Below, in pieces: positions 1-56,686 of a stretch of DNA of 64,000 nt. Where the stretch lies: positions 12,730 through 76,729 of the IMG/VR virus record IMGVR_UViG_3300044825_001572. One strand, given 5' to 3'. The notes under the pieces are model-generated. The model was not told the origin of the DNA, searched no databases, and worked only from the letters and a program-made list of their open reading frames with translations. The stretch is from a virus. Made by a program: the position numbers and the translations under genes. Position 1 is the first letter of the stretch, and every line of letters starts with the position of its first letter.

Positions 1-3000
1 TTGAAGTTGTAGTTGATTGTGTTGTTCCGTTAATACTTACTTTTGATGTATTGGTGCTTGCCGCTAGGTTAATCGTAGAAGCATTACCAAATGCATTCAC
101 AGTTTGAACTTGACTATTGAGAAGATTAAATGTAGATTGATTTGTAATTATATTTGAACCATTAATAGTTGTAATTCCACTGCTAGAAGTTAAAGCTAAG
201 TTTCCATTAACATCTACTCTTATTTTCACGTCGGTATCAAAATTTTCATTGTTATATGAAACAGTAGTGAGTGGAGTAGCTAGTTTCCAAGAATATCCAT
301 CACTAGTATCAATACCAGCGTACCATCTTCTGTTTATATTATTAAATGTAGTATCCCAGGATAGAGCAACATCTCCAGAGCCGGATTGAGTTAATCTTAA
401 ATGAGCACCTCTTAAGTTTTCTCCGGAATTATTTTGGAATACTGTAATTGTTCCAGAAGTTCCAATTCTCAATCTTTCAGTATTATTTGATAATATTCTT
501 ACGTCTCCACCATTATCAATAGCATTAATGAATAGTGGTGTTGTTCCTCTATGAATTATAGAAGAACTTTGACTTCCAACACCAGAATTTCTAATTAATC
601 TTAATCCATAATCAAAGGTAGAAGTATCATTATTTAAATCAATATATGAGGATTGGTTGGTATTACCTACTCCAAGTCTTAAAATTCTACTATCTGTAAT
701 ATATGCAGTAGAAATTCCAGGAACTCTATTTGTGGTAATTGCAACATTACCATTAACAACAGATAAACTATTATTGATGATAGTATTACCTGTTACTGAA
801 CTAATAGTTAAATCATTGAATTTATTATCAATAATATTACTACCAGCAATACCAACTCTAATATTTGCTAAATCAATTTTATCTGCATATAATGTTGGTG
901 CTACTCCAAATTCATTTTTTTTATTGATATAAACATCTTTATAGAAAGATGATACACCAACCGTCTCAATTTGATTAAATTTAGATGTTCCTCTTTCGTG
1001 AATTTGAGTATAATTAGTTGCGATTCCTGTTGATGGATTGATCCCCAAGAAAGTCATTGTTCCATAAACATCAACATCTTCAAATTTTACATCACCCAGG
1101 TTAAATGCTTGTGTAAATACAACTCCGCCAGTAACTCTTAGGTTTTGAATTTGAGCAGTACCAGCAACATTTAGTGGGTATACATCACTTGGAGCAATTC
1201 CAATACCAACTTTATCTAATGTAAATGTTAGCTTATTTGGTTCGTTACTAATTAATCCCCACTGCCTCCATTCATTACTCTTATAAATATGACCTACGTA
1301 ATTATTTGTTGGGTTTGAAATAAATGATATATCACCATTTGTTGGTCTTGGAATTGTTACTGCAGTTGGAGTTGATATTCCTACTGTGAATAATTTTTCT
1401 TGGGATACTGAACCTCTTATAAAGAGATTTCTCAATAACATACCTTCAGGAGAGAGGTTGGTTACTCTCTTATCAAAGTTTACTGGACCATAGAACTGTG
1501 AACTTTGATTATTATTTTCACCACCTTCTACAGTAATTCTACTTTTTACTAGAACTTCATCAAATAATCCACTTTGTGAATTTTGTAATTCTCCATTTGC
1601 ATCATCTCCGGTAAATGTCAATATTGGAGCACCGACAATTGTTTGCTCTCCAGTGGTTGCAGAAACTTTAGTACTTCCAGTATAGAATTCACCAAGGTCA
1701 TTCATTCCAGTATATACAATTGAGCCACCTTGCTCTCTTCTTGCTTGTGAATTAAGAACTTCAATATCTCCTAGAACTCTATCCTGTCTTTGTGGAAGAG
1801 CTGTGGAGTAGTTACCCGGACCATAACCTAAGTATTCAAAAGTATGTCCAGAAGCTCTCATAAATGAAGGTCTTCTTGTTTCTACTGGAAGTACTCTTAT
1901 TTTTCTAACAACAGAGCCAGAAACTGCAGAAATTCTTAGTGTACCTAGTTGATTTCTTAAAACATTAAATGATGTGCTAGTTGGAGTACCAGCAATCCTC
2001 ATAATCTCATTTCCAATAGTGATGAAATCTCCTCTCTTTAATCCAGCAGTAGTATCTACATTTAAAGAAGTTGTATTAATATTAATAGATGATGTTAATG
2101 TAAATGATAATCCAGAATATACATAACAAGCTCTAGAAGATAAGTTTTCTTCACCTCTACCTAAGTTTAATGCGTTTGAATTAATTCCATACTTAAGAAT
2201 TTTTCCTGTAGATGGAGTTGTAGTTGTAGTAGCAATCCCAGCACCAACACTAAATGAGAATGTTGTGATTCCAATAACTTCATTAACAATATAATCTTTA
2301 TTATTGTAAAATTCTATATTAGACTTGGTAAACTTAAATTTATTACCAATGGATAGTCCGTGAGGATAAGATGTAGTAACTGTTGTAATTCCTGTAGTTA
2401 AATCGCTCAAAATCATTGAGCTTATTCCAACACCTTTTGATGCAATATAACCAATTGGAACTATTCCATTTGTATTAGAAGTATATGTAGGTACTCCTTC
2501 TGGAACATAAATCGTTACTGATTTTTTATTTGGTACTGCTATAATTTCATAAATTCCATTTAAATCTGTTGAATGGAATCCAGAAAGTTCTAATCCGTCA
2601 CCAATATTATTGTTTATCTCAGTTACTTGGACTAGAGCATTGGTAACTGATCCTCCCTGAACTCCAAGTTGCTCTCCAACAGTATGTGCTGCACCTACGT
2701 CTACTAATCTTAAGCTATTAGTATTAATAGTGCCGGTTCCAGTTGTAGAATATCTACAAGTAGCATCTTCTTCATTAAATTTTACGTCTATTAGGTTTGC
2801 TGAGTAAATCGTGGTATTTAGAGGATATCCAGCTCCAGAAGAAATTACGTTTACAGATTTAATAGAGTTTAATTTATGTTCTACATCAGTAGATAAAGTT
2901 AAAGTTGTATTACCAACACCACTGATAGTAATATTAGTAATTCCAAATCCTACTCTATTGTTTTTATTAAATTCGTTAATTACCTCAAGAGTTAATGATT

Positions 3001-6000
3001 TTTTCTTATCATCAGTTATTACATTACCAACTACTTTTAAATCTGCGTAACTAATAGTGGCATTTGGATTTGATGTAGGATTATCTCTATCAACTTGCGG
3101 ATATAAATTTCTAATATCTTGATTAAAATACTTCGATGATAATCCATATCCAACATTATTACTAATTCCTATAGAAGATGATAGTACAATAAGATGATAA
3201 ATTCCATCCTGACCTTCAGTTCCAGGAACGTGTTCTCTTATGGTGTCTACTCTATAAATGTAAAAATTATTTTTATAAGACTGTCTTGATACTAAAGGTA
3301 ACGCATTTCTTTGTTGTGTTGTTGTTCTTTGATTAATATTATTTGTAAAAGTTCCTGGATTTGTTTTAACGCCTTCAAGTTGATATGTGAATGTTCTTGA
3401 TGATGGTATTGAAAGTACCGGGTAATCTCCATTATAACTACTAACAATTCCAACCCCAGATGGATTGTTTGTACTTCTTACTGATTGAACCTTTACTACA
3501 TCTCCAACAATTAAATTATGTGGTAACTCAGTAGTAATTGTAACTGTTTGTTTATTGTTGAGAATTGAACCAGCAGAAGCATTTACAATAACTTTTTCAT
3601 TTCTCAATTCAGTTGAATTTAAAAGTTGAGTACCATCACTAATACTTATTGTACTGATAGCTACATTTTTACTTTCTTGTAAAATATATCCAGATTGTGG
3701 TGCTTTTGCATTAATATATTCTTTTGGTATAACATAACGAAGTTTATATAATCTTTCATCAATAGGTCTATTCTCTTGTATCCTTTTTATAAATGTAAAT
3801 GGAGTTGCATCTCCAAATGTAGCTATGTTGATAGTTGATACTATATCATATATTTTATTTACTGATCCAGATTGGGCAGTAAAGATATACCAAGATTTAT
3901 TTCCTTCATCCCACTGAATTGGATGGCCAAATTCTCCTGCAATTTTATCACTTACAGTACTAATTACAGAAATAGTTCCTCCATTGTTTCCTATACTTGT
4001 GATCTCTACACCTGATAATGCATCATTTAAAGTTGAAGCAAGCTTTATTTGATTAATTCCAAGAGTTATATCAACAGTATTTGTAATTGTATAATATACT
4101 TTATCAATCTCTAATCCTTCTGGAGCTTGAGCGTTATCGCTAAAAATTCTTACCTTTTCTCCGGAAAATAATTTATGATTTCCAGTAAGTGTTAATACAT
4201 TATTTGAAATATTATTAACAATTCCAGTTCTAGCAACATTATATGTTTTTTTAGATATTAACCCCTCACTTTCATCTGGAGTAGTCATATAAATTGGGGT
4301 GGAATATGAAGATTGACTTTCATTTCCAGTAATAGTTAAATATAATTTATCTCCTTCTCTTGCACCTATTCTATATCCATTAACTTGAGATATGGGTACT
4401 ACATCCTTACTATTATATCCAAAAATATAAAGTTTATTTGGGTCTGCAATAGATTGAATTTTACCAATATCTAAAGGTAGCCAAGATACCTCATCCTCTT
4501 CTTCTACCAATTCTCTTGGGGGAATTATATGAGTAATATATCCAGTATCATCTCTATCAAATGAAGTTTTCTTAAATCCTATACTATTAAGTGAGGTAGC
4601 ACCAAAGTTTGAGTTTGAGTTGGTGATACTCATATCAGCACCACTTTCAGTTAAGAAATGTTTTGCATAACCAATAGCAAAAACTGATACTGCCTGAATA
4701 AAAGCATCATTAGAACACCTAATATGATAATTCTCAAATTCGGGTTTAAATATTGCTCTTGAGTTTTGATATAATGGTCTTAGTTGACTTACTGTGGGAA
4801 GTGTAATATTATCGTAATATACTCCATTATCATAAATCAAATATGCATCATTATCTTTCTGTAGAGAAACTCCGGTAAACTGAGCCACGACCATAGATTT
4901 AAATCCATCTGCTCTCGCACCATCAGCCCACATACCACACATACCATATACTGAACGTATAGAGCAGTTGAAGATATATGGTGATGATGAACTTACAGTA
5001 TCACTTTCTACAGATACTGTAGCAACATCAAAAGTATTTGAATCTGGTAATACTTCACTTGGAATTGTAGTGGTTACAAACGTAAATGTATTGATACCAA
5101 CAACTTCTCTTACTGTAAATGATCCATTATATGCAGTTGGAGATTCGGTAATACCTCTAATTACAATAGGAGTATCTACTGCGAAATTATGAGGCTTTTC
5201 AATTTTACTTTGTAAGTCAGCAGTAGTTACAGTAATGACGCTATTATCACCAGTACCATCACCATTACCAGCGCGAATACTTGAAATTCCTAGAGGATTT
5301 TCTTGAAGTGGACCTACAATTCTAAATTCATTAACATTAGGCTCAAAATCTAGATTTGCTGGGAAATCTTCAATTCCTCTACCAGAAAGACTATCATATG
5401 CCCTAGCAATTTTATAATAATACATTTCTAGGTCGGTTAGGTCAGTTTGGTCTTGACCCAATCTAACCTTATTTACACCATCGGCATAAACAAATGATGT
5501 TAATTTGTGGTGAGAGAATTTTGGAACGTGTTTAGTATCAGTATAATTTTTATATGCAAATTTTGTTATATCTGCATCAAAGAAGGTAAATTGTGAAAAG
5601 TAGCAACTACCTGTTACATTAAAAATACTTGAAACTTCTACATCTTGACTTAATGGGTCTGGAACATATAGAGGTCTAATTTTAGTCTTTCTTAAGTCTT
5701 GACCTACTATAGAAGTACCTCTTGGTAAAATTATACCACCATTAACTGAGTTATACTTATATAAGTCATTATTTGGATCGAATATATCAAAATTAGTATT
5801 CTCCCCAAAAGGTTGTAGACTAGATGTAGTCCAAGTATCTTTTCCAGTTCTTTTCTTATATACGGCAGATCCACTAATATTTTGTATACTATATCCAGGT
5901 CTATTATCAATATAATGTGTTCCAGAAGAAACTATAATCGTAGTTCTATCATTTCTATCGTTATTTCTTCCAGGAACATATGAGTAGAGAGCAGCCTCTA

Positions 6001-49898: not shown

Positions 49899-50529
49899 TC
49901 ACATTTGAGATAGCTTTGCGAAATAATCTAAAGCATCATCTTCGTCCGTTGTATCGTCATCATCTTCAATAATAGAAGATTTTTTAGATGATTTTGATGA
50001 TACCATTTCTTGATAATCATCATCAATTTCTTCTTGTAGTTCTGGATCTACTTTTTTCCTTTCTGTATGAACATTACCAAGAACTTTATCTAGACGAGCT
50101 TGAAGTTCATCATAAGATTTGAACTTTTCGGGATCAACAAATTCATTTAGATTATGAAGTTTATCATAAACTTCTTTCAGGTCATCATCATCTCCACCCA
50201 ATAGAGCAGATGGATTTGCAAACTCTGAGCTATCATAGTTCCAATAACCATCTTTCTTGAGAACCTTTAGTTTGAAATCAGCACCTTCCCAAAAGTCAAA
50301 TGGATTGATAGGAGTATCATCTTGGAATTTTGGTTTTAGAGCAGCTTCAATCTTTTCAAAAATCTTCTTACCAAATTTAAAGATGCGAACAGTTCCCTCG
50401 TTTTCAGGACTATCTGGATCTTTGATTACATAGACATTAGCGTAATATGAAAGCTTACGTTTACGATCCCTTACAACATTTTGCTTTTGTTTATCTCCAG
50501 TTGCCCAATCTTTGCTATTGTTGTCGCAA
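49899..50529 (-). CDS. gp32: Single-stranded DNA-binding protein gp32, exon 2
   Basis: CDNNSKDW...KRKLSYYANVYVIKDP..PENEG..FKFGKKIF..NPFDFWEGADFKLK..YWNYDSSEF; acidic C-terminal tail. Confidence 0.92.
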
Positions 50530-50666
50530 CATTTATATTCATATAAGTTCGCTAAGCTTATATCGGGTCTTACCCTGCTTATAATTTCTTATAAGATTAG
50601 ACTATATCACACACCTAATAAATTTTAGGTGTCTCCGCATTTCGGGATGCTTATCCCTACTCCCGG

Positions 50667-51611
50667 TCAAGGGATAGTCGTTGAACCTTCCTCAAGTATA
50701 CTTGAGGCTTGGCTGCTGATTGCCTTGTGTAATATGTTTAAATACTTTTGTTTATCTTTGAGAGTTCTATCTTTATTAATATCTTTGGAATGAATAACAA
50801 GAAAAATATGATTATATCCAGAAAGTATAGTATATTTATTTTTGATAATATTTTCTTGATATCTAATGTTAAAAGTATATTCACTTTTAACCTCAATAAT
50901 CAAATTATCAATCATTATATCTGGATAATATTTTCTATTATTTGGTAAAGTTATTCTTGGAACATCTTTACCAATTTTAATTGAAGATATATCTACAATT
51001 TCAGCTAAAAGATTTAAAGCTATGTCTTCATAACCTTGAACTTTAAATTCTCTCCCAGATATAATAATGCTTTTGTTAGCATTTTTATATGGAGCATCAA
51101 TATAAGAACCATTTTTTATTCTTGTTGCAACTGATTTAGAAACTAAATCTTTTACATCTTGTTGGGTTCTACGTTCCCATTGTCTTTTAGCTTTTTGAGA
51201 AAAATAATCATCTCCATAATTTCTTTTAAGAGATGATACTCTTTTTCTAGCTATATCCAAAATTTCTTTATCACTTTTAGAAGCCATAGTAGCATTACGC
51301 TTTTCCAAAGATTTTAGTAATTTATCTCTATCATTTACAAATCGTTCTTTAACTGCTTTTTTATGATTCTCATTTTTAACAGAACAATTACTACAACAAT
51401 ATTGTTTATAGCCAAGTCTTAAACTGTTAAATCTAGTTGGAGATTTACAAGTTTTACATTTTCCTGCTTCTCCAAGATATTTCAAATAATAATCTTCGGC
51501 AGTTATTGGAACTATTCGTAGATAATTTAATAAACCTCTTAAAGTTGGATAATATGTGTTGTTTATAGCACAATAATATCCATTTTCATCTTGTAAATGT
51601 ATCTTTTCCAT
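50667..51611 (-). CDS. Intron-encoded putative homing endonuclease (Cys-rich Zn-finger + PD-(D/E)XK)
   Basis: CKTC..YCCSNC N-terminus; VQGYE...YYPDIMIDNLIIEVKS catalytic motif; 3' end reads through the intron Q and R elements. Confidence 0.8.
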   Translation of the reverse strand: MEKIHLQDENGYYCAINNTYYPTLRGLLNYLRIVPITAEDYYLKYLGEAGKCKTCKSPTRFNSLRLGYKQYCCSNCSVKNENHKKAVKERFVNDRDKLLKSLEKRNATMASKSDKEILDIARKRVSSLKRNYGDDYFSQKAKRQWERRTQQDVKDLVSKSVATRIKNGSYIDAPYKNANKSIIISGREFKVQGYEDIALNLLAEIVDISSIKIGKDVPRITLPNNRKYYPDIMIDNLIIEVKSEYTFNIRYQENIIKNKYTILSGYNHIFLVIHSKDINKDRTLKDKQKYLNILHKAISSQASSILEEGSTTIP

Positions 51612-51641
51612 ACTCGTGTATTCACTTCACAAGTATTTATA
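51610..51641 (-). promoter_or_regulatory. Late promoter TATAAATA plus RBS/AUG-sequestering hairpin of the intron ORF
   Basis: TATAAATA at 51634-41; AUACUUGUG (51628-36) pairs with CACGAGUAU (51610-18), covering GAG and the AU of AUG. Confidence 0.75.
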
Positions 51642-51727
51642 AAGTTTTAATTTATATTACCTTTAGGGTTTCCAGCAATTAACGGAGTTTTCACTATAAA
51701 TTACTTTATAGTGCCGCTTACAATCAA

Positions 51728-52017
51728 ACGGGACACTTACGTCCAACAGTAGTGGGACAATTTTCAATGAACCACTGACCTCCTGGACCTTGGAATGCGT
51801 GACTAAATGCTTGGACATATTCATCTTCCCAATCAGCACCGGCAGGTAGAAAGCGAATAACTGCATATCCAGTTTCGGTTTTCTTATTTAGTGTGGGTTT
51901 CCAGAAGCGTTCATCATCTCCTTCCCTAATCCCACCATTAAGTTTTTCAACTTGTTTAATGAGTTTTTCAGTAAGAGAACCCATTTTTGATTTCTTTTTA
52001 AGATTTTCAAAGCTCAT
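51728..52017 (-). CDS. gp32: Single-stranded DNA-binding protein gp32, exon 1
   Basis: MSFENLKKKS..DDERFWKP..GYAVIRFLPA..HAFQGPGGQWFIENCPTT.GRKCP(V). Confidence 0.92.
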
Positions 52018-56608: not shown

Positions 56609-56637
56609 TAGGTTGCTCCTTTACTATAAGTAAATTT

Positions 56638-56686
56638 GCGTTGCTTCTCCTAATGGATACTTCCGCTGGTTTTACCAGTCAACGAT
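56638..56686 (-). ncRNA. glnA-type glutamine riboswitch
   Basis: AUCGUUGA-CUGG/CCAG-CGGAAGUA-UCC/GGA-GAAGCAACGC: P1 CGUUG/CAACG, three-way junction and E-loop AGUA/GAA. Confidence 0.85.

Follow-up and report, generated by a model that had tools for sequence, protein, structure and literature searches.

The stretch of DNA analysed, a 64,000-nucleotide window from IMG/VR record IMGVR_UViG_3300044825_001572, comes from a marine T4-like cyanophage in which gp32, the single-stranded-DNA-binding protein gene, is split by a group I intron at the Val codon of CPV↓C (the arrow marking the junction; Table 1). gp32 is a core replication gene of T4-like phages and is used as a phylogenetic marker. The insertion point lies between the second and third bases of the Val codon in (C/D)PV. 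Exon 2 has neither a start codon nor a frame start of its own, and its in-frame fusion to exon 1 rebuilds CPVC, giving an intact spliced protein of 306 amino acids that is colinear with the intronless gp32 of cyanophages S-BM3 and S-SSM7. At the 5′ splice site there is a U.G pair in P1, with CCGU↓U paired with AAGCGG in all 12 loci that share the intron, and the terminal G of the intron, at 50530 in the window, is also found in 12/12.

Table 1. Features of the intron-split gp32 locus (positions in the window).
Feature	Position	Strand	Basis
gp32 exon 1, ends ...C-P-V, final exon base 51728	51728..52017	-	Pfam gp32 profile positions 2-56; junction mapping
Group I intron, 1198 nt, IA2-like (P7.1/P7.2 present)	50530..51727	-	Rfam match, RNAalifold and pair counts in 12 loci
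gp32 exon 2, C-D-N-N-S-K-D-W...	49899..50529	-	Pfam gp32 profile positions 60-207, E 1.1e-32
P1 (CCGU↓UU with AAGCGG), P2 hairpin with GNRA-type loop, P3 5′ strand	51683..51732	-	Compensatory pairs: P2 7/7, P3 4/6
P4 5′ strand ('P'), P5 5′ and P5a 5′ strands, immediately before the ORF start	51654..51678	-	Compensatory pairs: P5a 5/6
P4-5′ ('P' element); P4-3′ ('Q')	51673-51678; 50713-50718	-	Own mapping
P5/P5a strands beside the ORF	51665-51667, 51654-51660 vs 50729-50735, 50723-50725	-	Own mapping
TATAAATA, T4-type late-promoter-like motif, 23-30 nt upstream of ATG	51634..51641	-	Sequence match; putative function from T4 (PMC2988022)
9-bp hairpin, 3′ arm over weak GAG Shine-Dalgarno and AU of AUG	51610..51636	-	MFE -9.1 kcal/mol
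Intron ORF, DUF7487 nuclease, 314 aa, ATG start, TGA stop	50667..51611	-	Intact frame
Residues 11-33, beta-beta-alpha module, C2H2-finger homologue without Zn ligands here	51513..51581	-	AF2 E11-14, E19-21, H24-33
Residues 52-76, C-x2-C-x16-C-x3-C putative zinc finger, FCS-like	51384..51458	-	Four invariant Cys
Residues 81-170, basic four-helix linker with K..T....YG..Y.S repeats	51102..51371	-	pI 10.2
Residues 176-275, PD-(D/E)XK nuclease core	50787..51086	-	Invariant residues and fold matches
Catalytic codons E195; D231; E240; K242	51027-51029; 50919-50921; 50892-50894; 50886-50888	-	
Dual-use segment: last 23 codons = P5a′, P5′, P4′ (Q), P6/P6′, P7-5′ (R)	50667..50735	-	Codon-position identity
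P7.1 and P7.2 hairpins between P7 and P3′	50661-50674; 50644-50657	-	Compensatory pairs: 2/4; 5/5
Remaining core: P7.1′, P7.2, P3′, P8, P7′, P9, P9.1, P9.2, terminal G	50530..50666	-	Rfam and covariation

The Rfam Intron_gpI model (RF00028) matches the window at 50578-50814 with 39.8 bits (E 2.9e-8), under the gathering score of 50, the model being split by the ORF in P5; homologous introns in three other loci (L010, L013 and L016) score 54.8-62.5 bits. The score below threshold would allow that there is no intron, and that a free-standing nuclease gene divides gp32 into two genes, and fractured genes without introns do occur in the DUF7487 family to which the ORF belongs, the ligase of L018 being an example. 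This is scarcely credible, however, with a complete group I core supported by covariation around the ORF, the U.G pair at the 5′ splice site and the terminal G, and an exon 2 that lacks a start codon and restores CPVC on joining exon 1. Gene fission without an intron was rejected on these features. As judged from its sequence the group I intron is real and conserved, and it is predicted to be self-splicing.

Covariation was assessed over the 12 loci with RNAalifold and counts of canonical and compensatory pairs. In 11 of the 14 helices 96% or more of the pairs are canonical, the lowest being P9.2 with 77%, and compensatory changes occur at most helix positions; this conservation of pairing is far beyond chance expectation. 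The covariation supports P1, P2, P3, P5, P5a, P6, P7, P7.1, P7.2, P8, P9 and P9.2, while P4, being invariant in the 12 loci, speaks neither for nor against its own pairing. The core from P3 to P8 is present with its P, Q, R and S elements, the compensatory pairs numbering 4/6 in P3, 4/4 in P6, 5/6 in P8 and 1/6 in P7, and in P5 there is exchange between C-G, U-A and G-U among the loci.

Strands of P5 and P5a lie on both sides of the ORF, which is therefore located in the terminal loop of P5a. This agrees with the initial annotation, made from the sequence alone, which had put the ORF between the P and Q elements and had its last ~20 codons doubling as ribozyme Q/P6/R; the shared stretch proves to be 23 codons long and to take in P5a′ and P5′ as well. 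The stop codon falls in the P7.1 loop. Third-codon identity is 0.74 in the dual-use segment as against 0.52 in the ORF body, three loci (L008, L009 and L011) run other reading frames over the same RNA, and residues 302-314 have a pLDDT below 50 in the AlphaFold model. Within the ORF body identity is highest at the second codon position, lower at the first and lowest at the third, and the body appears to be under purifying selection. No second copy of the ORF was found on its own contig.

The TATAAATA motif or a one-off variant is seen at the same place in 11/12 loci, L009 having only TATAAT. The 5′ arm of the start-codon hairpin overlaps this motif, and a hairpin of different sequence that would sequester the start codon is present in 9/11 of the other loci, making 10/12 in all. 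T4 provides a precedent for a late promoter within an intron combined with a hairpin hiding the start (PMC2988022), and the nuclease is probably expressed late in the same style. In early and middle gp32 pre-mRNA the hairpin would hide the start codon, and the ribozyme, it is proposed, would therefore be free to fold and splice. The TATAAATA late promoter within the intron would start transcripts without the 5′ arm of the hairpin, and we propose that the nuclease would consequently be translated late. The overlap of ORF and ribozyme, together with the conserved pair of promoter and hairpin, offers a natural comparative data set on the sharing of sequence between a mobile ORF and a ribozyme.

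The protein has the three parts read from it initially, a Cys-rich zinc-finger N-terminus, a basic helical linker and a nuclease with the motif QGYE..YPD..IIEVKS, and an additional module at the N-terminus. The AlphaFold model has a mean pLDDT of 85.5, and the N-terminal half folded separately reaches 90.2. Relatives from L011 and L024, aligned to the C2H2-like module, retain C-x2-C...H-x3-H, and that of L024 matches Pfam zf-C2H2_6. There are five cysteines within residues 48-80, of which C52, C55, C72 and C76 are invariant over 25 homologues with identity down to 24%, the set over which invariance was judged throughout; together with a weak profile match to the FCS fingers 2l8e and 2w0t (E 0.33-1) they suggest that this finger binds zinc. 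The linker holds 25 Lys and Arg among its 90 residues and is modelled by AF2 as helices at residues 95-110, 114-132, 136-147 and 150-167, the number of its repeats differing among relatives. Compared with the PDB, the N-terminal half gave no significant structural match, the best (Z 4.3) matching long helices only, and its fold is assigned only as far as the finger resemblances in sequence. In the nuclease core Q192-G193-Y194-E195, P230-D231 and E240-V241-K242 are invariant, and these supply the superfamily motif of a Glu in helix 1 (E195), an acidic residue at the start of beta2 (D231) and (D/E)xK in beta3 (E240-K242). The core elements in the AF2 model (helix 195-205, strands 211-213, 232-234 and 237-243, helix 244-263 and strand 267-273) form the alpha-beta-beta-beta-alpha-beta fold.

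Homing endonucleases commonly degenerate once fixed, and the RNA constraint on the last 23 codons would preserve part of the ORF anyway, which might point to a decaying or domesticated enzyme that has lost catalysis and persists as a maturase or because the ribozyme requires the 3′ end of the ORF. It is nevertheless very improbable that the enzyme is of this kind: the full 314-codon frame is open, the four catalytic residues and the four putative Zn ligands are invariant in the 25 homologues, the ORF body has the codon-position pattern of purifying selection, and intron-minus alleles still circulate, so the homing cycle is unfinished. A dead endonuclease was rejected on these observations.

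Comparison of the nuclease domain with the PDB by VIA-align gave I-Bth0305I (3r3p, Z 9.8) and Vsr (1cw0, Z 9.7), with further matches to NGO0050 (3hrl, 8.7), TnsA (8.2), Bax1 (7.8) and I-Ssp6803I (5.3). Among the 12 matches at Z>=6.7, I-Bth0305I, Vsr, NGO0050, TnsA, Bax1, BpuSI and AbaSI have the PD-(D/E)XK fold, as does the Vsr-like RAP module of FASTKD4, and three are unclassified. Foldseek, which had been suggested as a check of the restriction-endonuclease-like fold, returned weak matches to the PDB for the full-length model, none at E<=0.001, those recognised being PD-(D/E)XK nucleases; with the canonical E...PD...ExK site, the AF2 model and the VIA-align matches the fold can nonetheless be accepted. 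Some DUF7487 members match Pfam Tn7_TnsA-like_N (E 9e-6). Sequence searches of the PDB with the single protein and the family profile found no nuclease match, only weak zinc-finger matches, and no sequence link to any characterised homing endonuclease was detected by HMMER, BLASTP or hhalign.

The ORF matches Pfam DUF7487 (PF24308) with E 1.4e-12 and 48.5 bits against a cut-off of 27, and 63/63 homologues carry the same domain. Clustered at 50% identity, the family comprises 19,384 clusters at E<=1e-3 and 9,767 at E<=1e-10, and the nearest Atlas clusters sampled are 94-100% viral. Some members are labelled 'HJR family nuclease', 'putative homing endonuclease' or 'Holliday junction resolvase' in their records. 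A PHROGs search gave one weak match, to a family of unknown function, and searches of the literature on DUF7487, cyanophage gp32 introns and 'HJR family nuclease' did not turn up an account of the DUF7487 family. The proposal that this is a new family of homing endonucleases thus holds in part, in that no describing paper was found and the genomic settings are of the homing type, but the family is already catalogued in Pfam and is uncharacterised rather than unseen. Pfam records its function as unknown, and its intron context and homing role were worked out in the present analysis. In reviews six families of homing endonuclease are recognised, with the EndoVII-like F-CphI in addition (PMC6083498); none has an architecture of zinc finger, helical repeats and PD-(D/E)XK nuclease.

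In the 15 fullest viral loci (L003-L017) the ORF is always at the same gp32 site, with ORF identities of only 30-57%. Two types of gp32 target, CPVC and DPVS, are found among the loci, and the ORFs have co-diverged with the target type. The isolates S-BM3 and S-SSM7 have an uninterrupted, annotated gp32 in which the junction sequence is kept and represent intron-minus alleles, with intact candidate target sites present in isolates; the ORF thus lies inside a predicted self-splicing element of which intron-plus and intron-minus alleles exist among related genomes. Megablast of the region against isolate phages gave no match and tblastn of the ORF seven records, none from a cyanophage, while gp32 exon 2 matched 568 records, mostly cyanophage. 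The intron-plus allele seems to be absent from sequenced isolates, with near-identical records possibly masked.

Other settings recur in the family. In L005/L006 a 26%-identical paralogue sits inside a second gp32 intron, and in L030 a member adjoins a group I intron of 112 bits. In Dickeya phages JA33 and JA11 the halves of a helicase gene stand on either side of a member, the upstream half ending in a Hint match just under the Pfam cut-off with junctions C.../...HNC, and in L018 an NAD-ligase gene is interrupted by a member. Genes for gp32, helicase and ligase that are split in this way are at present either wrongly annotated as two genes or not annotated at all. Many members are free-standing without a detectable intron, and a search around six relatives that are free-standing or split a gene, and around three from isolate phages, found no introns.

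These free-standing members, and the resolvase labels of some relatives, would be accommodated if the nuclease were a lodger in the intron loop with another job, such as recombination or junction resolution, degradation of host DNA or anti-defence, and did not target gp32. The labels are automatic, however, and the matches to Hjc are weak (Z 5.4-5.9) beside those to Vsr (9.7) and I-Bth0305I (9.8). Members have repeatedly come to occupy self-splicing or gene-splitting positions, namely introns at two places in gp32, a Hint/intein-like junction dividing a helicase gene, and an interrupted ligase gene. Such a pattern is the signature of homing and not of a housekeeping nuclease, and at the level of genomic behaviour the homing role first proposed for the ORF extends to its family. 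The co-divergence of the ORFs with the CPVC and DPVS targets is also against a lodger, which we regard as decidedly unlikely, and identity with a Holliday-junction resolvase was rejected.

It would seem likely, then, that the ORF encodes an intron-borne homing endonuclease, predicted to be active, from a PD-(D/E)XK lineage not yet characterised, DUF7487. The zinc finger and helical part would bind a long asymmetric site across the point in intronless gp32 where exons 1 and 2 meet, and the nuclease core, with its classical D-ExK site, would make a Mg2+-dependent cut or nick near that point. The cut allele would then be repaired from a co-infecting intron-bearing genome and so acquire the intron with its ORF. 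Cleavage of gp32 near the CPVC codons by the predicted nuclease, as foreseen in the initial annotation, is plausible.

There is one PD-(D/E)XK domain per chain, and a double-strand break needs dimerisation, failing which there would be nicks only. The enzyme may accordingly be a site-specific nicking endonuclease whose monomer nicks one strand of intronless gp32, with homing completed by replication or recombination as for I-HmuI and I-PfoP3I. Of the top structural matches, Vsr is a nickase and I-Bth0305I made mostly nicks at non-cognate sites (PMC3239194); a nicking intron endonuclease of a cyanophage is also known (PMC3428280). Dimerisation could be mediated by the long helical linker, however, and at its cognate recA site I-Bth0305I cuts both strands, leaving a 2-base overhang (PMC3239194); a nickase is on balance the less probable form, though the least improbable of the alternatives considered.

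Whether DUF7487 as a whole is a major overlooked family of homing endonucleases in phages and giant viruses, similar in size to the GIY-YIG and HNH families of phages, is evenly balanced. Such a family would recognise its targets through exchangeable zinc fingers and short helical K..T....YG repeats of varying number, joined to a classical PD-ExK nuclease on a Vsr-like scaffold, with gp32 as a recurrent target in marine myoviruses. If so, site-specific nucleases would gain a modular scaffold of a new kind, and the EDxHD/Vsr active site its 'missing' relative with the classical lysine. Should a member prove active, thousands of 'hypothetical' phage genes would gain a function, the split gp32, helicase and ligase genes of metagenomic and isolate genomes would be accounted for, and a new zinc-finger-plus-nuclease scaffold would be at hand. 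For marine virus ecology, an unrecognised 1.2-kb intron in gp32 disrupts gene calling and marker-based surveys.

Among known enzymes the EDxHD prototype I-Bth0305I (PMC3239194, PMC2677866) is the best structural match (95/98 residues, rmsd 3.0), and both proteins, here by prediction, bind DNA through the N-terminal region and carry the nuclease at the C-terminus. The ORFs likewise both lie in P5 of a phage group I intron within a recombination or replication gene (PMC3239194), and either family also occurs beside split inteins, within fractured genes and as free-standing genes. The hhalign register brings the catalytic strands together, pairing D231 with D196, E240 with E206 and G265-Y266 with G233-Y234, at a probability of 1% (1.05%). 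In I-Bth0305I, however, Asn208 is followed by the catalytic His213, whereas here there is the classical ExK lysine, K242; D196, E206, H213 and D222 are invariant in that family, and the aligned strand here, I-E-V-K-S-E-Y-T, has no invariant His. The fold is Vsr-like, but the composite E-D-x-H-D motif with a His after beta3 is absent. There is no significant sequence similarity to I-Bth0305I (BLASTP E 0.27; HMMER gave no 3r3p match at E<=10), and neither DUF559 nor Vsr is matched in Pfam at E<=1. Instead of NUMOD/HTH repeats the DUF7487 protein has helical repeats preceded by a C2H2-like module and a 4-Cys finger, with no NUMOD match in Pfam. Membership of the EDxHD family was rejected, as hhalign against a newly built alignment of the I-Bth0305I family gave the 1% probability despite the expected register. 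The initial annotation separated the nuclease from the EDxHD enzymes, but the closest structure solved is that of their prototype, and a sister lineage in which the classical lysine has been retained is the better description.

I-Ssp6803I (2ost, PF11645) shares the canonical PD-(D/E)XK motif, a group I intron and a cyanobacterial or cyanophage setting, but is a weak structural match (rank 33), and the ORF has no match to Pfam PF11645. I-Ssp6803I is a small single-domain tetramer, not known to have separate DNA-binding modules, and is located in a tRNA-fMet intron.

The intron endonucleases of T4 share with this one a T4-like phage host, an IA2-type intron with P7.1/P7.2 and a modular build in which the catalytic domain is tethered to DNA-binding modules including a zinc finger, but their catalytic folds are GIY-YIG or HNH and not PD-(D/E)XK. 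The T4 intron ORFs occupy other loops, in the P6 and P9 regions, of genes of nucleotide metabolism rather than gp32. The likeness to the T4 introns extends to control, the intron containing a late promoter, here a putative one, and the translation start being masked by a hairpin (PMC2988022).

The sequence is part of an IMG/VR viral contig of 76.7 kb, estimated to be ~36% complete, and its gene content is that of a T4-like cyanomyovirus. The downstream exon of its gp32 matches 568 isolate records, 463 of them named Synechococcus, Cyanophage or Prochlorococcus, with identity below 60% throughout. When the two gp32 pieces (see table) are joined they give a 921-nt frame encoding a 306-residue protein, which can be aligned with the uninterrupted gp32 of the Synechococcus phages S-BM3 and S-SSM7, with no gap where the exons meet. 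The window gp32 keeps the cysteine ligands of the T4-type zinc site (ENCPTT...CPVC; 51728-51780 and 50517-50529), and the insertion point falls within this motif; S-BM3, S-SSM7 and the related viral loci L010-L017 have serine or aspartate at these positions (ENSLTT...DPVS). In two viral contigs of this DPVS-type lineage, L010 and L016, gp32 is preceded at ~2 kb by a permuted tmRNA gene of alphaproteobacterial type (817-1113 and 723-1056; Rfam 92 and 69 bits, respectively), a hint that the host is not a cyanobacterium and may be an alphaproteobacterium. A glutamine riboswitch aptamer is also present in the window.

The interruption of gp32 is a real group I intron. The Rfam group I model matches positions 50578-50814 (39.8 bits, E 2.9e-8); having to skip the ORF, it falls short of the gathering score. 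The splice sites were placed after 51728 (5'; CCCGU/U) and after G50530 (3'). Scanning IMG/VR with a degenerate pattern returned 80 loci encoding relatives of the ORF; the 15 that match most fully (L003-L017) all have gp32 interrupted by the ORF at the identical codon, and in the 11 where both splice sites could be located these are the same nucleotides. Rfam group I matches overlap the 3' end of the ORF in seven of these loci, three of them exceeding the gathering score. RNAalifold, run unconstrained on the 5' and 3' intron segments of 12 aligned loci, recovered P1, P2, P3, P4, P5, P5a, P6, P7.1, P7.2, P8, P9 and P9.2, while P7, being a pseudoknot, was entered by hand. Across these loci compensatory double changes are seen in P2 (7/7 pairs), P3 (4/6), P5a (5/6), P6 (4/4), P7.2 (5/5), P8 (5/6) and P9 (5/7), with P4 and most P7 positions showing no variation. 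Of the 14 helices counted, 11 have canonical pairs in 96% or more of their cells, the lowest values being those of P9.2 (77%) and P5a (90%). That there is no intron here at all is scarcely credible. With its P7.1 and P7.2 the intron is IA2-like and so resembles the T4 introns of td, nrdB and nrdD, which belong to this subgroup.

Positions of the gp32 exons, intron elements, putative expression signals and segments of the encoded protein
Feature	Position	Strand	Remarks
gp32 upstream piece (exon 1)	51728-52017	-	Ends ...ENCPTTVGRKCPV; Pfam gp32 profile positions 2-56
gp32 downstream piece (exon 2)	49899-50529	-	Starts CDNNSKDW...; Pfam gp32 profile positions 60-207, E 1.1e-32
Nuclease ORF	50667-51611	-	314 codons, ATG start, TGA stop; between the two gp32 pieces
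P4-5' ('P' element)	51673-51678	-	Intron mapping
P4-3' ('Q')	50713-50718	-	Intron mapping
P5/P5a strands upstream of the ORF	51665-51667 and 51654-51660	-	Intron mapping
P5/P5a strands on the other side	50729-50735 and 50723-50725	-	Intron mapping
TATAAATA motif	51634-51641		T4 late-promoter consensus; 23-30 nt 5' of the ATG
Hairpin	51610-51636		9 bp; 3' end of the motif pairs with the GAG-AU(G) start region
Glutamine riboswitch aptamer	56635-56686	-	Rfam RF01739, 50.5 bits, above gathering score
Beta-beta-alpha unit	residues 11-33		AlphaFold2; aligns with intact C2H2 fingers of relatives, ligands lost in the window protein
4-Cys knuckle, predicted	residues 52-76		Profile search matches FCS-type fingers weakly, E 0.33
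Four long basic helices	residues 95-167		pI 10.2; K..T....YG..Y.S repeat
Nuclease core	residues 176-275		Alpha-beta-beta-beta-alpha-beta; AlphaFold2

The initial annotation had placed the ORF between P and Q in the P5 region; in agreement with this, strands of P5 and P5a flank the ORF, which therefore lies in the terminal loop of P5a. Its suggestion that the last ~20 codons double as ribozyme Q/P6/R is borne out by the mapping, in which the last 23 codons span P5a', P5', Q, P6 and R/P7-5', with the stop codon falling in the loop of P7.1. Third-codon-position identity is higher in this tail than in the body of the ORF, both among close relatives (0.74 vs 0.52) and in comparison with the distant group (0.65 vs 0.44), the same conserved nucleotides are read in other frames in three loci (L008, L009 and L011) and the final 13 residues are modelled as disordered (pLDDT <50), so that the tail is conserved as RNA and not as protein. 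Free-standing relatives have no such tail and end directly after the nuclease domain. The overlap itself is evolutionarily plastic: in L008:3888-3987, L009:2543-2687 and L011:3809-3834 the nuclease ORF crosses the conserved ribozyme core in another frame, or continues through P7.2, P3' and P8. Upstream of the ORF, TATAAATA or a one-base variant is found at the same position in 11 of the 12 loci, and the start codon is sequestered by a hairpin in 10 of the 12, the differing hairpin sequences amounting to compensatory changes. Expression of the nuclease would seem to be controlled by a late promoter together with the hairpin.

DUF7487 is the sole Pfam assignment of the protein (E 1.4e-12; score 48.5 bits, cut-off 27). 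Among 5.8 billion proteins 63 homologues were found, 27 of them close (48-73% identity); where the source names them the name is 'hypothetical protein', the one exception being an HNH-fused member labelled McrA. The Cys-rich N-terminus and the QGYE..YPD..IIEVKS nuclease motif picked out in the initial annotation are both conserved, the residues invariant in a 25-sequence alignment reaching down to 24% identity including Cys52, Cys55, Cys72, Cys76, Gln192-Gly193-Tyr194-Glu195, Tyr228, Pro230-Asp231 and Ile239-Glu240-Val241-Lys242. A dead or domesticated enzyme is very unlikely. In the AlphaFold2 model (mean pLDDT 85.5) the proposed basic helical linker resolves into four long helices, whose repeat varies in copy number among relatives, and Glu195 lies within helix 1, Asp231 at the head of beta2 and Glu240-x-Lys242 in beta3. 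Foldseek gave weak matches in the PDB, none at E<=0.001, those recognised being PD-(D/E)XK nucleases (R2 endonuclease, cap-snatching endonucleases, Bax1 and Cas4). An exhaustive VIA-align search with the model returned the I-Bth0305I catalytic domain (3r3p; Z 9.8, 95/98 residues, rmsd 3.0), Vsr (1cw0; Z 9.7), the FASTKD4 RAP module (9gek; 9.2), NGO0050 (3hrl; 8.7), TnsA (1t0f; 8.2), Bax1 (6p4w; 7.8), several chains of Hjc (5.4-5.9) and I-Ssp6803I (2ost; 5.3); both searches agree with the PD-(D/E)XK fold originally proposed. Vsr, DUF559 and I-Bth0305I fall in one clade of the published PD-(D/E)XK classification (PMC3424549), and certain DUF7487 members match Pfam Tn7_TnsA-like_N (E 9e-6 to 8e-5).

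It would seem probable that the protein is an active homing endonuclease, in which the fingers and helical repeats would bind the intronless gp32 junction and the E/D/ExK site would cut or nick nearby. With a single active site per chain, and Vsr being a nickase, a nick in place of a double-strand break is conceivable, if rather unlikely. Members of the family also behave like homing endonucleases. In the loci mapped, the gp32 intron occupies the identical nucleotide in two host lineages, with CPV/C-type and DPV/S-type gp32, whose ORFs are only ~30% identical, and intronless isolates retain a near-identical junction (GACCCCGT/TTCTGAGTACAAT in S-BM3 vs GACCCCGT/CTCAGAGTATAAT in the fused exons of L010). 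A second group I intron of gp32, farther down after ...ENEGRVFL (L005:1957-3100 and L006:4215-5360), encodes a full-length paralogue of 307-315 residues (26% identity to the window protein, E 5e-21) and in L005 has its own Rfam match at 2853-3067, giving two DUF7487 introns in the gp32 of one phage. At L030:2467-3673 a 283-residue DUF7487 ORF follows a Rad50/gp46-like ATPase gene and immediately precedes, without overlapping it, a strong group I intron core that scores 112 bits. In the Dickeya phages JA33 (vB_DsoM_JA33, MH460462.1, 942-4048) and JA11 a helicase gene is annotated as two CDSs, each named 'DNA repair helicase', which are separated by an unannotated DUF7487 ORF of 375 residues with treble-clef fingers on the opposite strand (JA33 1853-2980; same in JA11). 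At the end of the upstream half there is a Hint module match that narrowly misses the Pfam cut-off (27.5 bits, cut-off 29.7; E 2.8e-6), and at the start of the downstream half an intein C-terminus ending HNC (...VHNC), identified by eye. The locus looks like a split-intein 'fractured gene', an arrangement described previously (PMC2677866). A 327-residue DUF7487 gene likewise separates an NAD-dependent DNA ligase adenylation/OB ORF from a downstream ORF (L018:1608-4654), with no group I intron detectable at this locus, and in Vibrio phage Va1 a free-standing member adjoins the major capsid gene. A role for the nuclease other than homing is improbable. DUF7487 is a large family: clustering at 50% identity gives 19,384 clusters for E<=1e-3, 9,767 for E<=1e-10 and 2,220 for E<=1e-30. 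The Atlas clusters sampled were 94-100% viral, and among the BFVD matches are proteins of phages and giant viruses that carry the labels 'HJR family nuclease', 'restriction endonuclease' and, in a single case, 'putative homing endonuclease'.

For comparison with the EDxHD family, the sequence of its prototype I-Bth0305I was taken from its own phage record (gp29, 'mobile intron protein') and a family alignment built on it. Pairwise BLASTP between I-Bth0305I and the window protein was not significant (E 0.27) and hhalign of the two family alignments gave 1% probability, the sole block being in catalytic register (Y-P-D-I/V-D-F-Y, I-I-E-V-K-S/A-I-E-V-N-G and G-Y/G-Y, window family first). The window family keeps the classical lysine, Lys242, and has no conserved histidine, whereas the EDxHD family has Asn, Asp or Gln at the lysine position and the catalytic His213 five residues on (PMC3239194). 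Both proteins have an N-terminal DNA-binding region, predicted in the window protein, and a C-terminal nuclease, and both ORFs lie in P5 of a phage intron. Since architecture and placement are parallel but the chemistry differs, the window protein is treated as having an I-Bth0305I-like working mode while lying outside the EDxHD family. The I-Bth0305I relatives form two groups, each with a conserved tail in the last 10 residues (...FWV(T/S)HISN.. and ...LG(L/F)P(I/V)Q); these tails may likewise reflect overlap with intron RNA, as in the window ORF. The literature search found no paper on DUF7487, on a cyanophage gp32 intron or on this protein architecture; the family that the initial annotation inferred to be a new homing endonuclease family is already catalogued in Pfam. 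Before I-PfoP3I, an HNH enzyme, intron-encoded homing endonucleases in cyanophage protein genes were unreported, according to a 2012 paper (PMC3428280). Homing endonucleases built on a restriction-enzyme fold are already known from phage group I introns, but this lineage, its domain make-up and its putative gp32 target are not.
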